A stretch of DNA of 64,000 nucleotides from Candidatus Kaiserbacteria bacterium. Lineage in GTDB: Bacteria; Patescibacteriota; Minisyncoccia; Phycocordibacterales; UBA918. The position numbers were made by a program, and so were the translations under genes. The notes below the pieces were generated by a model that saw only the letters and a program-made list of their open reading frames with translations, searched no databases and was not told the origin of the DNA. Each line of letters begins with the position of its first letter. Position 1 is the first letter of the stretch. Shown one piece after another: positions 18,336 to 30,681 of this stretch. The stretch spans positions 18,562 through 82,561 of the forward strand of contig JACQKD010000014.1 in NCBI GenBank assembly GCA_016204695.1, written 5' to 3'.

Positions 18336-19076
18336 ATGAGATTTGAAAACAAAGTGGTCCTAGTCACCGGTTCGAGCCGCGGAATCGGCAGAGCCACCGC
18401 GCTCGCTTTCGCGCAGGAGGGCGCACATGTGACAATAAATTACGAGAAGAACCGTGCTGATGCAGAGGACACAGTAGCCGAGATCAGAAAGATCGGCAGG
18501 GATGCTATTGCAATTCAAGCAGATGTGGCTATCGAGGATGATGTCAAAAGAATGCTTCAGGAGGCCGTAGCGCATTTCGGCGGCATAGATGTTCTCGTAA
18601 ATAACGCGGGCATCGTCTTTGATGTGCCAATACTGGAAAAGACGGTAGAGCAGTGGCAACGTACGCTTGCTGTTAATCTGATCGGGACTTTTCTGTGTAT
18701 CAAAGAGACGGTTCCGTATCTTACCGAAAGATCAGGATCGTCAATAGTTACTATTTCTTCAAATAACGGCATCGACACCGGCAGTCCGGAATCCGCCGAC
18801 TACGACGCTTCCAAAGCGGGTATTATCAGCCTAACTAAGAATTTTGCTCAAGCGTTGGCTCCCAAAATCAGAGTTAATTCCGTCGCTCCCGGTTGGATCG
18901 ACACGGACATGAACAAAGATCTGCCGGTAGAGTTTGTGGAAAGTGAGACGCAAAAAACGGCCTTGAAAAGATGGGCAAAGCCGGAGGAAATAGCAAAAGC
19001 CGCCTTGTTCTTATGCTCCGATGACGCCAGTTTCATCACTGGTTCCATTTTGGTAGCAGATGGCGGTTATCGGTAA
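18336..19076 (+). CDS. SDR family oxidoreductase (FabG-like)
   Basis: TGSSRGIGRA (cofactor-binding), NNAG, YDASKAG (catalytic YxxxK). Confidence 0.85.
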   Translation: MRFENKVVLVTGSSRGIGRATALAFAQEGAHVTINYEKNRADAEDTVAEIRKIGRDAIAIQADVAIEDDVKRMLQEAVAHFGGIDVLVNNAGIVFDVPILEKTVEQWQRTLAVNLIGTFLCIKETVPYLTERSGSSIVTISSNNGIDTGSPESADYDASKAGIISLTKNFAQALAPKIRVNSVAPGWIDTDMNKDLPVEFVESETQKTALKRWAKPEEIAKAALFLCSDDASFITGSILVADGGYR

Positions 19077-28540: not shown

Positions 28541-29010
28541 ATACGTATACGCTCTTGTATTTGTACGACTCGAAAGCGCGCCGGATTCTGCTCGCGCTGA
28601 AAAAACGCGGGTTCGGGGAGGGAAAATGGAACGGTATCGGCGGAAGAGTGGAAGAAGGAGAGACGGTGGAAGATGCGGCGGTGCGAGAGGCGCAAGAGGA
28701 GGCAAGAGTGGAGGTCAGTCCGGACACACTGGTACGCCGCGGCAGTATTCGTTTTTCATTTGAAAACCGTCCGGAACTTGATCGGGACGTGCATATCTTT
28801 TTTACGGAAGAATGGAAGGGAGAACCTATCGAAACCGGGGAGATGCGGCCGCGGTGGCATGACGCCGCCCGTCTTCCGTATGAAGAAATGTGGATTGCCG
28901 ACAAAGATTGGCTACCGAAGATGCTTGCCGGAAAAGTAATAGCGGGACGCGTCCGCCTCTCCGGCTCGGGGGACCGGATTTTGGACATGGAAATCAAAGA
29001 CTCGGTGTAG
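28537..29010 (+). CDS. Nudix hydrolase (MutT-like)
   Basis: Nudix box GGRVEEGETVEDAAVREAQEEARV; ATGA overlap with the upstream MazG-like gene. Confidence 0.8.
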   Translation: MNTYTLLYLYDSKARRILLALKKRGFGEGKWNGIGGRVEEGETVEDAAVREAQEEARVEVSPDTLVRRGSIRFSFENRPELDRDVHIFFTEEWKGEPIETGEMRPRWHDAARLPYEEMWIADKDWLPKMLAGKVIAGRVRLSGSGDRILDMEIKDSV

Positions 29011-29031
29011 TATATTGAGACGCGCGGAGAA

Positions 29032-29104
29032 GCCACCTTAGCTCAGTTGGTAGAGCACCACTTTCGTAAAGTGGGGGTCCTCGGTTCAATCCCGAGAGGT
29101 GGCT
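29032..29104 (+). tRNA. tRNA-Thr (anticodon CGU)
   Basis: Cloverleaf: acceptor gccacct/aggtggc, D arm tagctcagttggtagagc, anticodon stem ccact/agtgg with loop ttCGTaa, T arm ctcgg-ttcaatc-ccgag. Confidence 0.8.
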
Positions 29105-29178
29105 CCGAGAGTGCGAGCACAGAAAAATCCGCGGAAAAGCGTAGGTGGGGTAAACTGCTATTATGATATGGTAGTAGT

Positions 29179-29886
29179 ATGCTGATTCTCACAAAAAACA
29201 TTCTGGAGAAAGAGTACTGTAACAACAAAAAATCAGTCGCTGAGATAGCTAAATTTTTTAATTGTTCGCAACACAAAATAAACTATTGGCTGGGTAAGTA
29301 TCACATTCCTAAAAGAAAAATTTCGGAAGCGATGTATATCAAATGGAATCCGAGGGGTGATCCTTTTGCCTTTAATAACCCACAAACCTTAGACAAAGCA
29401 TTCCTATGGGGATTGGGACTCGGATTATTTTGGGGAGAAGGTAATAAGAAGAACACGGACTCGGTCCGACTGGGTAACGTGGATCCCGGACTTATACGAA
29501 CGTTTTTAAAGTTTCTTGACGAGATCTATACTATTGATCATGCACGACTGAGATTCGGGCTTCAGACTTTTACCGACATTGGTGAGAATGCGGCAGTCGC
29601 TTATTGGTGTCGGGAGTTGCGAGCAAACCGCCGACAATTCTATAAAGTTACAGTCACGCGCTCTGGAAGTCTTGGAACATATCGAGAAAAAAGTAAGCAC
29701 GGAGTTCTAACTATCTATTTCCACAACAAAAAACTTCGTGATAGTATCGTCAATGCGATTGGGGAATTGGGTTCTGGTTCCATTCGCAAAAGTGCCATCT
29801 TAGCTCAGTTGGTAGAGCGCGTCCATGGTAGATCGCAAAAGATCTCTGCCCTTTGGGACAGAAACGTCCCATCGAATCCCGAATAA
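29179..29886 (+). CDS. HTH plus degenerate LAGLIDADG-like (putative homing endonuclease) protein; the 3' end runs into the tRNA-Thr(GGU) 5' exon
   Basis: N-terminal HTH-like KSVAEIAKFFNCSQHKINYWL; central AFLWGLGLGLFWGEGN resembles a single LAGLIDADG motif (acidic E in the catalytic position) followed by an I-CreI-like FLKFLDEIY region. The locus is AT-rich. The exact C-terminus is uncertain because the frame stays open through the tRNA exon into the intron. Confidence 0.4.
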   Translation: MLILTKNILEKEYCNNKKSVAEIAKFFNCSQHKINYWLGKYHIPKRKISEAMYIKWNPRGDPFAFNNPQTLDKAFLWGLGLGLFWGEGNKKNTDSVRLGNVDPGLIRTFLKFLDEIYTIDHARLRFGLQTFTDIGENAAVAYWCRELRANRRQFYKVTVTRSGSLGTYREKSKHGVLTIYFHNKKLRDSIVNAIGELGSGSIRKSAILAQLVERVHGRSQKISALWDRNVPSNPE

Positions 29887-30075
29887 CGGTCAACGGCCTG
29901 ACACCGGTTAAGACCGTGGCCTTCTCTCAATAGAAGGCCCGAACGACTGACACGGGAAGTTTCATTCGCCGACGGGTGAAGATGCTTAAGATACAGTCTA
30001 GCCCTCTTATAGTGTCTGTCGAAAAAGAGGTGTAAGCGAAGGACGAGGTCCCCGGTTCAATCCCGGGAGATGGCT
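29794..30075 (+). tRNA. tRNA-Thr (anticodon GGU) interrupted by a 209-nt intron in the anticodon loop (between positions 36/37)
   Basis: 5' exon 29794-29829 (acceptor gccatct, D arm, anticodon stem cgtcc, loop atGGT) and 3' exon 30039-30075 (aa, ggacg, variable aggtc, T arm cccgg-ttcaatc-ccggg, acceptor agatggc, discriminator t). The joined exons closely resemble canonical bacterial tRNA-Thr(GGU). Confidence 0.6.
29830..30038 (+). ncRNA. putative group I intron (209 nt) in tRNA-Thr(GGU)
   Basis: Boundaries obey group I rules (5' exon ends in U, intron ends in G). The size is similar to the smallest known tRNA group I introns. An internal acagtctag segment resembles a P7/R-element-like sequence. 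No ORF inside. Confidence 0.45.
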
Positions 30076-30096
30076 CAATAGATCCATAGGCGGAAG

Positions 30097-30681
30097 TTAT
30101 AACGGCTTAAAGAGTGCTTGGAGCGCTTCTTTCTTTTCAGGGTACAGCTTCGCTTCATACAATACCGGCGCGATCTCTTTCTCGGAGAAATGTTTACTCG
30201 TGCCAATCTCAACAAACTCATCGAACGTAACCGGCTTGAGTGTGATCCTTTCGCCGGCATCGAGATGCATGTCCGCGATTTTGGTGAGACCTTTTGCGAT
30301 GAAACTGAAAACGACGTAGTCAATCTTCGAGGTAGGGTGGTGAGCATCCCATAGGGTAAACTCGGATGCTTCATATCCGCTTTCTTCGAGGAGCTCGCGC
30401 TTTGCCGCGTCGAGGATATCCTCACCCTCATCAACCCGACCTCCGGTTGCCGCAATAAAAGACGCTTTCCCGGGCTGTTCTTGCTCGGTCAGTACGATCT
30501 TCCCGTCGTCGAGCACCGGAAACACGACGACCGTGTCGGCTCGTTTCAGTTTTTCAAACATTGTTTTCGTGCCGTCGAAAAGCTCCTGCTCCCATTGGTA
30601 GACATCGAAGATGACCCCGTCAAAGACTTTTTTCGCATGATCAGGGATCGGCTGATCCGACGGCGGTCGAGAGATATGCAT
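30097..30681 (-). CDS. Nudix hydrolase (ADP-ribose pyrophosphatase-like)
   Basis: Nudix box GGRVDEGEDILDAAKRELLEESG. Confidence 0.75.
   Translation of the reverse strand: MHISRPPSDQPIPDHAKKVFDGVIFDVYQWEQELFDGTKTMFEKLKRADTVVVFPVLDDGKIVLTEQEQPGKASFIAATGGRVDEGEDILDAAKRELLEESGYEASEFTLWDAHHPTSKIDYVVFSFIAKGLTKIADMHLDAGERITLKPVTFDEFVEIGTSKHFSEKEIAPVLYEAKLYPEKKEALQALFKPL

Follow-up and report, generated by a model that had tools for sequence, protein, structure and literature searches.

A split tRNA-Thr(GGU) gene with a probable group I intron and an adjoining putative homing endonuclease gene in Candidatus Kaiserbacteria

How is a tRNA made from a gene that is interrupted next to its own anticodon, and what does the open reading frame (ORF) that runs into the first half of that gene have to do with the interruption? 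The question is raised by a stretch of 64,000 nucleotides (nt) from a Candidatus Kaiserbacteria bacterium (assembly GCA_016204695.1, contig JACQKD010000014.1, forward-strand positions 18,562 to 82,561), called the window below, in which the two halves of a tRNA-Thr(GGU) gene are separated by an insert of 209 nt and preceded by an ORF of 235 amino acids. Judging from comparison of homologous sequences, the insert very probably is a real group I intron, the excision of which is needed for tRNA-Thr(GGU) to be made. The exons, as read from the sequence and by ARAGORN, and the insert are the following.

29794-29829, + strand: 5' exon of tRNA-Thr(GGU), with the acceptor 5' strand, D arm, anticodon stem 5' strand, loop nucleotides A32 and U33, and anticodon G34 G35 U36
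29830-30038, + strand: 209-nt insert between tRNA positions 36 and 37, very probably a group I intron, with 108 homologous copies and covariation
30039-30075, + strand: 3' exon of tRNA-Thr(GGU), with A37 and A38, anticodon stem 3' strand, variable loop, T arm, acceptor 3' strand and discriminator U; CCA is not encoded

The 5' half reads GCCATCT TA GCTC AGTTGGTA GAGC G CGTCC AT GGT and the 3' half AA GGACG AGGTC CCCGG TTCAATC CCGGG AGATGGC, followed by the discriminator T. An earlier note on this DNA, made from its letters alone (the original prediction), had described the two halves and the gap of 209 nt with coordinates that are exact to the base, and its further claim that the insert follows a U, ends in G and lies in the anticodon loop can be read directly from the sequence. 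The predicted resemblance of the joined halves to tRNA-Thr(GGU) was borne out by ARAGORN, which calls them tRNA-Thr(ggt), a canonical product. With its intron option, the same program reports for 29701-30200 a tRNA-Thr that is interrupted at position 37 by 209 nt of intron, i(37,209). Default ARAGORN and the Rfam tRNA model missed the split gene in the window, calling only tRNA-Thr(CGU) and a tRNA-Gln, and a second tRNA-Thr(GGU) was not found in the window by default ARAGORN. A pattern of exon features only (D arm, UGGU, variable loop and T stem, with a gap of 191-251 nt) matched once in the window and in none of 100 shuffles.

The evidence that the insert folds as a group I intron is mainly comparative and comes from 108 homologous introns of Patescibacteria, 50 from genomes and 58 from metagenomes. 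The genome scan covered one genome per species and used a pattern of tRNA exon features only, with inserts of 184-244 nt. About 70 tandem-tRNA false positives were filtered out, to be reused later as a background of uninterrupted tRNA-Thr(GGU) genes, and all 50 loci left carry a clearly homologous insert that ends in G at the same tRNA position. Nearly all belong to Patescibacteria, among them Saccharibacteria, Kaiser-, Wolfe-, Vogel-, Lipton-, Nomura-, Komeili-, Morani-, Uhr-, Jorgensen- and Peregrinibacteria. Locus L013 (contig CALLKE010000091.1, 1378 bp), labelled uncultured Pedobacter sp., holds a Patescibacteria-type ORF and an intron-bearing tRNA-Thr; it is probably a mis-binned contig, not a Bacteroidota occurrence.

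Intron sequences, 51 in number, were aligned with plain, unbiased MAFFT (alignment A1), and the proposed structure was scored on this alignment. Standard pairs occupy 92.6 % of the cells, a figure that falls to 31-46 % if the 3' partners are shifted by 1-3 columns, and compensatory changes are present in 32 of the 51 pairs; the observed values were reached by 0 of 500 shuffles. Eight of the ten helices covary (P1, P2, P3, P5, P6, P8, P9.0 and P9). When 80 independent metagenome loci were searched with a covariance model built from the 51 members of A1 (R1), 58 proved to have the intron, with scores of 53-205 bits. In the metagenome set, 94.3 % of the cells are paired and 33 of 52 pairs show compensatory changes, the alignment having been fitted to R1 and hence being biased towards the proposed structure. 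At the 5' splice site, 51/51 sequences of A1 and 55/55 of the metagenome set have the U·G pair. A GAAA loop in L2 goes together with a receptor-like P8 (CU[AU][AC]...UA[N]G) in 37 of 53 sequences, as compared with 2 of 46 when L2 is G[CU]AA (Fisher p = 4e-12, shared ancestry ignored), a pattern such as a tetraloop-receptor contact would yield. The proposed structural elements of the insert are listed below.

29827-29850, + strand: P1, in which exon GGU and intron AGA (29827-29832) pair with the guide UCUGCC (29845-29850), U36 and G29848 forming a wobble at the 5' splice site
29851-29874, + strand: P2 hairpin with GAAA tetraloop (29861-29864); compensatory changes in 9-10 of 10 pairs, the loop type co-varying with the P8 motif
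29877-29880, + strand: P3 5' strand UCCC, with its partner GGGA at 29954-29957; CCC/GGG is replaced by CUC/GAG and UCC/GGA in relatives
29886-29917, + strand: P4 (29886-29891 with 29912-29917) around P5 (29895-29898 with 29906-29909), both in the minimum free energy (MFE) fold
29918-29939, + strand: P6 hairpin GGCCUUCU / AGAAGGCC; compensatory changes in 4 of 5 counted pairs, in the MFE fold
29943-29949, + strand: P7 5' strand, consisting of A29943, bulged C29944 and GACUG (29945-29949), pairing with CAGUCU (29994-29999)
29957-29987, + strand: P8 hairpin, a variant of the receptor-like form that accompanies GAAA in L2; 3 of 3 counted pairs covary
29988-29999, + strand: J8/7 (AAGAUA) and P7 3' strand (CAGUCU), nearly invariant in the family and resembling AAGAUAUAGUCC of other bacterial tRNA group I introns
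30001-30037, + strand: P9.0 (GC at 30001-30002 with GC at 30036-30037) around P9 (30003-30008 with 30025-30030)
30038-30038, + strand: terminal guanosine (omega G) at the 3' splice site, a G in every non-tandem exon-pattern match

The hand folding of P1 and P3-P7-P9 that the original prediction had proposed as a check yields a group I core: all helices from P1 to P9 as well as P9.0 can be drawn, including the P3/P7 pseudoknot and the P4-P6 domain. With every structural hallmark folding and the comparative data in agreement, its group I interpretation is supported. The MFE fold recovers P2, P4, P5 and P6 and is more stable than 200/200 shuffles (z = -3.3). The U·G and two G:C pairs of P1 are invariant, while intron nucleotides 1-3 covary with the guide. 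A hairpin that had been noticed at the 5' end of the insert (AGAUC, 29830-29834, with GAUCU, 29841-29845, leaving a CU bulge) holds as an extension or alternative register of P1, whereas the segment 'acagtctag', which had been likened to the R element, is made up of J8/7, the 3' strand of P7 and P9.0, the S-like element. The same ambiguity of register is seen in the relatives L045, L052 and L086, and a conformational switch between the two P1 registers (29830-29850) is possible.

Within the core, J3/4 (GAAUA) lies just ahead of P4, and the stop codon TAA of the upstream ORF is found there, at 29884-29886. P4 (ACGGUC/GACCGU) is invariant except for a change of U·G to C:G, and P5 covaries. P7 does not vary in the 51 and 52 sequences of the genome and metagenome sets, respectively, and G29945:C29998 presumably is the guanosine-binding pair. 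The architecture of P7 matches the consensus G-a-GACUA/UAGUCC of bacterial tRNA group I introns in the Williams seed alignment, and J8/7 is the same as the AAGAUA consensus of these introns; both are matches of sequence only. The P9.0 pairs 30001:30037 and 30002:30036 switch between GC and AU and between CG and UA in 12-20 sequences per pair, and five of the six P9 pairs covary. As the terminal G was demanded by the search filter used to collect the homologues, its constancy is no independent test of the 3' splice site. Family members measure 170-240 nt. The shortest, L183 (2156-2325, 170 nt), L189 and L192 (172 nt each) and L149 (176 nt), are matched by R1 over their full length with every helix kept, and are smaller than both the 184-nt minimum of a published survey of bacterial tRNA introns and the 205-nt Azoarcus intron.

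A number of observations count against a functional group I intron. The Rfam/Infernal search with RF00028 that the original prediction had recommended gave no match for 29700-30150 (451 nt), neither at the gathering score nor at E <= 10. P3 has only 3-5 pairs, P4 and P7 are uninformative either way because they never vary, and the covariation tests ignore phylogeny. In the paper on such introns by Nakagawa et al., in vitro self-splicing is shown for the Asn and Asp introns only (PMC13011429). The negative RF00028 result reflects the reach of the model, since the same failure has been published for exactly the tRNA-Thr(GGU) 36/37 intron type (PMC13011429).

That type is known from 3 of 95 complete Patescibacteria genomes (Nakagawa et al. 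2026, mSystems, PMC13011429). Its members were named 'divergent group I introns' after Castelle et al. 2018, were placed with subgroup IA on a long branch, and are missed by RF00028 and ARAGORN, while the model gpI_bact_tRNA.cm of tFind detects them (PMC13011429). A class Thr.5Ug had been defined by Williams (bioRxiv 2020). In genomes with a Thr intron, standard tools count one Thr tRNA fewer (PMC13011429). Since the host tRNA, insertion point and phylum are the same, the intron in the window is another copy of this reported kind, and the kind is already known; the approximate length and the invisibility to RF00028 and default ARAGORN are also shared. It differs from the published introns in coming from Kaiserbacteria HY416, the published list consisting of three genomes. 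One of the homologous loci, L092, is in the complete Wolfebacteria genome CP011209.1, which is among the complete genomes of the candidate phyla radiation that such studies use. The published work on the Thr type gives no covariation-tested structure, and endonuclease genes were sought by Nakagawa et al. only inside introns > 500 bp, the flanking ORF being unreported.

The intron of the pre-tRNA-Ile(CAU) of Azoarcus sp. BH72 (subgroup IC3, 205 nt) is likewise small and bacterial, is inserted at position 36/37 and has a guide that pairs with the anticodon. It also combines a GAAA loop in L2 with a P8 receptor (seed Aol6.Ile2.5Ug). Docking of L2 into P8 is a feature of the Azoarcus intron structure. 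The two introns differ in J3/4-P4 (GAAUAACGGUU in the window, AAAUUCGGCG in Azoarcus) and P7 (GACUG/CAGUC instead of GACUA/UAGUC), and the GCCAAG motif of P6 is absent here. By eye, the nearest cores are those of the 35/36 introns that interrupt tRNA-Asn and tRNA-Asp of Patescibacteria and of the related IA-type introns (Williams seeds Pgr210.Thr.2Ug and Mba143.Tyr.4Ug), the IA-type seeds having GAUAACGGUGAA / CACCGUGG / AAGAUAUAGUCC where the window has GAAUAACGGUCAA / GACCGUGG / AAGAUACAGUCU. As compared with the Asn and Asp introns, the insertion in the window is one base further 3' and in another host tRNA; an HNH endonuclease is encoded inside some Asn introns, the Thr intron being ORF-less. 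The core thus looks IA-like, as published, yet an IC3-style L2-P8 contact appears to be present.

Three other explanations for the insert were rejected. For an archaeal-type bulge-helix-bulge intron the position is wrong, bacteria are without the endonuclease concerned, and a group I core has been demonstrated; a group II intron is at odds with size and structure; and an intron-encoded protein is ruled out by the only ORF in the intron being the tail of the upstream ORF.

On the anatomy described above and established group I chemistry, splicing would start with pairing of the anticodon GGU and the first three intron bases to the guide UCUGCC in P1, which places U36 in the U·G wobble. Docked in P7 at the G:C pair, an external guanosine would then attack after U36, upon which P9.0 would bring the terminal G30038 into the same P7 site. 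Attack by the 3' OH of U36 after G30038 would join the exons and give the loop AUGGUAA. Docking of the GAAA loop of P2 in P8 would steady the compact core.

The second part of the question concerns the ORF that overlaps the 5' exon. It and the other elements of the presumed transcription unit are the following.

28988-29016, + strand: promoter-like site TGGAAA-17-TATATT ahead of tRNA-Thr(CGU), a consensus match only
29032-29106, + strand: intact tRNA-Thr(CGU), called by ARAGORN and Rfam, probably the first gene of the transcription unit of the split tRNA
29179-29886, + strand: ORF of 235 amino acids, with an N-terminal helix-turn-helix (HTH) and a C-terminal domain with GLGLGLFWGEG; putative free-standing homing endonuclease
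30112-30138, + strand: terminator-like hairpin with T-rich tail just past the split tRNA, a consensus match only

The intact tRNA-Thr(CGU) was correctly noted upstream in the original prediction, although its 3' end is 688 nt ahead of the split gene and not 690 nt as stated there. The promoter-like site before it and the terminator-like hairpin after the split tRNA suggest that the region from tRNA-Thr(CGU) through the split tRNA, with the ORF in between, may form one transcription unit. Situated between the two Thr tRNAs, the ORF reads 93 nt into the 5' exon and the intron to end at the TAA in J3/4. The conserved protein, of about 200 amino acids in the family and with a 'YWGEG' domain besides the HTH, ends near 29793, and the last 30 codons cross the tRNA 5' exon and P1-P3 of the intron.

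The ORF encodes a protein that matches 'hypothetical protein HY416_03895 [Candidatus Kaiserbacteria bacterium]' with 100 % identity. Its family comprises 435 matches at 90 % clustering, all 'hypothetical', and the superfamily 7,661 clusters at 50 % identity (E <= 1e-3). By sequence, only the N-terminal HTH is recognised, through Pfam HTH families and a weak match to NUMOD1; the HTH also accounts for the matches of 58/58 members to the PHROG 'HNH endonuclease' families 7545 and 8446, which are phage homing-endonuclease families. The C-terminal part contains an invariant motif, G-L-x-W-G-E-G-x-K, which takes the form [GM][LI]x[WLI][GA]EGx[KR] in distant relatives and fits positions 3, 4, 5, 7, 8 and 9 of LAGLIDADG, as a resemblance of motifs only. 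Residues G82, L83, G86, E87 and G88 are invariant in 58 close relatives, and E87 and G88 are kept in 28 and 31, respectively, of 32 distant ones. Superfamily members P0252, P0254, P0255, P0276 and others, of 400-800 amino acids, consist of 5-14 tandem HTH modules alone.

These properties make it somewhat probable that the ORF is a nuclease-type mobile gene of LAGLIDADG-like character. Several results speak against this assignment. None of the Pfam LAGLIDADG families scored above threshold, the best being LAGLIDADG_3 with E = 0.07 (5 of 58 close relatives) and 0.009 (2 of 32 distant ones), and profile searches against PDB sequences matched only the HTH. The predicted order of secondary structure elements is alpha-beta-alpha-beta-alpha-beta-beta-alpha instead of the textbook alpha-beta-beta-alpha-beta-beta-alpha. 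In addition, hhalign found no match to I-CreI, NCBIfam profiles recognised only the HTH, and Foldseek gave nothing at E < 1e-3 in PDB and BFVD.

The genomic position of the ORF was surveyed from both sides. By tblastn, many of the intron-bearing loci were seen to have an ORF of 45-56 % identity immediately 5' of the split tRNA. In 21 of 51 loci it lies directly upstream and ends at or inside the tRNA 5' end, and its stop codon is often the TAG of tRNA nucleotides 8-10. From the side of the ORF, the best 80 metagenome homologues were taken, 78 of which had enough downstream sequence. All 78 have a tRNA-Thr within -33 to +89 nt of the protein match, with anticodon GGU in 77 and CGU in one (L163); 58 carry the intron and 20 do not. 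The nearly identical loci L117 and L118, both with the intron, differ by a precise ORF cassette of about 600 bp, which replaces a spacer of 19 nt between the stop codon of the upstream gene and the tRNA, and in L083 the ORF copy is frameshifted. The ORF is a presence/absence polymorphism between close relatives. Paralogues with 26-34 % identity are located directly 5' of other, uninterrupted tRNAs, namely tRNA-Val(GAC) in L047 (original 1120-1192), tRNA-Tyr in L027 (1780-1865), tRNA-Thr(UGU) in L094 (5480-5552) and tRNA-Met/Ile2(CAU) in L096 (2469-2541), and the stop codon of the L047 paralogue is again the TAG at tRNA nucleotides 8-10. In full-text searches of the literature, no description was found of free-standing endonuclease-like genes beside tRNA genes of Patescibacteria; the ORF family beside tRNA-Thr appears to be new and unreported.

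ORF and intron are also connected by the anticodon stem of the host tRNA. In intron-bearing genes this stem ends in CC...GG in 50 of 51 valid contexts (ACUCC 18/53, CAUCC 17/53). Uninterrupted tRNA-Thr(GGU) genes of Patescibacteria that lack the ORF have CC/GG in 8 of 11 cases, and those of other phyla nearly always, but uninterrupted genes that are linked to the ORF have it in only 3 of 19, the others having UC/GA, GC/GC or CA/UG. The difference between 3/19 and 8/11 gives a Fisher p of 0.0045 (0.0098 within the same D-arm type), in small, pattern-selected samples and with phylogeny ignored; for comparison, the share of CC/GG among intron-bearing genes is about 95 %. Such depletion of CC/GG is what would be expected if an enzyme cuts the common pseudo-palindromic anticodon arm near the insertion site. 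The intron accompanies the ORF in about 75 % of cases as compared with 3 of 95 complete Patescibacteria genomes (the latter figure from PMC13011429).

Whether the ORF cooperates in homing with the ORF-less intron is, on this pattern, a question that falls just short of even. Two points tell against cooperation: about a quarter of the ORF-bearing loci are without the intron, which is therefore not needed for the ORF to persist, and the background of genes with neither ORF nor intron is small (n = 11) and was chosen by the search pattern. In the mechanism proposed, an ORF with an HTH and a LAGLIDADG-like domain would have settled at the 5' edge of tRNA-Thr(GGU). Uninterrupted tRNA-Thr(GGU) genes would be cleaved by the enzyme within or close to their anticodon arm (pseudo-palindrome NNNCC-AUGGUAA-GGNNN), repair would copy the ORF, the 36-bp exon and the intron together, and the carrier would be protected by the intron or by a changed anticodon stem. 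If there is a single transcription unit, then, purely by inference, RNase P cleavage or splicing would cut the ORF mRNA before its stop codon; with this stop inside the tRNA or intron, tRNA processing would trim the end of the mRNA and limit expression of the enzyme. More broadly, and with rather more reserve than conviction, the HTH and LAGLIDADG-like family may be proposed to represent free-standing homing endonucleases for tRNA 5' flanks in Patescibacteria, of which the Thr(GGU) branch would form a two-part mobile element with the intron.

Arrangements of this kind have been described in phages. The free-standing endonuclease F-CphI is reportedly encoded next to the psbA intron of cyanophage S-PM2 (Zeng, Bonocora & Shub 2009). 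With this case and that of mobE and the nrdB intron of T4, the locus in the window shares an endonuclease-like gene that lies outside and beside the interrupted gene, an ORF-less intron, and the presence/absence polymorphism of the gene. The differences are that the phage examples concern protein-coding genes and GIY-YIG or HNH enzymes for which cleavage has been shown, whereas in the window a cellular tRNA gene is interrupted, and its exon is overlapped by a putative nuclease ORF that is LAGLIDADG-like by motif only. MobE of T4 promotes trans-homing of the nrdB intron (PMC2790892). SegB of T4 is a free-standing homing endonuclease in a phage tRNA gene cluster (cited in PMC13096335) and is thus similar in having its gene among tRNA genes; it is a GIY-YIG phage enzyme and is tied neither to the 5' end of one tRNA nor to an intron.

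The strongest competitor to cooperative homing, though itself unlikely, is that the ORF, as a mobile nuclease gene, homes to the 5' boundary of tRNA-Thr regardless of the intron, which would be carried along by co-conversion from 36 bp away (trans-homing) and would not protect the target. The ORF indel ends within 11 nt of tRNA +1, the ORF often stops at the TAG of tRNA nucleotides 8-10, the ORF occurs with intron-less tRNAs (once with tRNA-Thr(CGU)), and its paralogues occupy the same place before other tRNAs, all of which fit this explanation. So does the distribution of the intron-less state, which is scattered on the ORF tree (19 tips; 13 parsimony steps, random mean 16.9). Co-conversion alone would account for the enrichment of the intron beside the ORF, but such hitch-hiking leaves the rarity of CC/GG in the ORF-linked intron-less genes unexplained.

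It is also conceivable, albeit improbable, that the ORF product is not a nuclease at all and instead regulates the tRNA operon by binding DNA or RNA, the placement of its gene being unrelated to mobility. This would agree with the HTH being the only domain that is significant by sequence and with the long HTH-only arrays that make up some superfamily members.

Much less credit is given to the idea that the group I fold is non-autonomous and that the ORF encodes a LAGLIDADG-type maturase which helps it to splice, instead of or besides acting as a DNA endonuclease. LAGLIDADG maturases are established in organelles and offer a precedent; P3 is short and the intron very small; and the ORF is co-oriented with the precursor, overlaps it and is probably co-transcribed. 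However, 30 of the 51 intron-bearing loci have no adjoining ORF, about 20 ORFs lie beside an uninterrupted tRNA-Thr, paralogues are found by the intron-less tRNA-Val, tRNA-Tyr, tRNA-Met and tRNA-Thr(UGU), and the co-variation of tetraloop and receptor suggests a self-sufficient fold.

That the halves are merely what an insertion has left of a ruined tRNA gene, a pseudogene from which nothing is spliced, is scarcely credible: the gene and its intron escape the default tRNA finders and Rfam, and splicing of the Thr intron type is a prediction from sequence, but the same interruption is kept at the same nucleotide in more than 100 loci across many classes of Patescibacteria, both exons are intact, the stems show compensatory changes and the core is nearly invariant, and the lack of another tRNA-Thr(GGU) in the window, together with the published shortfall of one Thr tRNA in genomes that have the intron, fits the split gene being the only GGU isoacceptor.

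Downstream of the tRNA, on the opposite strand, lies a gene for a NUDIX hydrolase (30097-30681, - strand), the product of which is 73-81 % identical across classes of Patescibacteria (L201-L206). Elsewhere, the NUDIX gene is part of a fixed cassette of four genes (HTH, 282-aa protein, NUDIX and 130-aa protein), which is absent in the window. Its conservation is unusually high for the phylum, and it may belong to a mobile cassette. When the NUDIX gene was used to look for empty tRNA sites in close relatives, it proved to be about 80 % conserved across classes but not syntenic with the tRNA.

For annotation, the consequence is that standard pipelines miss tRNA-Thr(GGU), so that genomes of this kind appear to be without an essential isoacceptor; the deposited genome has a 235-aa 'hypothetical protein' across the 5' exon. 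For RNA biology, the 108 natural variants provide a structure, tested by covariation, for a very compact group I ribozyme whose guide pairs with the anticodon itself. Most tRNA introns were found to be without endonuclease genes, and their transfer was considered to be probably infrequent, a conclusion that follows from a search made only inside introns (Nakagawa et al., PMC13011429). What merits further work is the ORF family, together with the three-way pattern in which it, the intron and the anticodon stem take part. Should an endonuclease be encoded by the flanking ORF, a mobility partner would adjoin many of the 'ORF-less' tRNA-Thr introns, and the locus would be a cellular counterpart of the phage cases that have been proposed as a route by which mobile introns arise.

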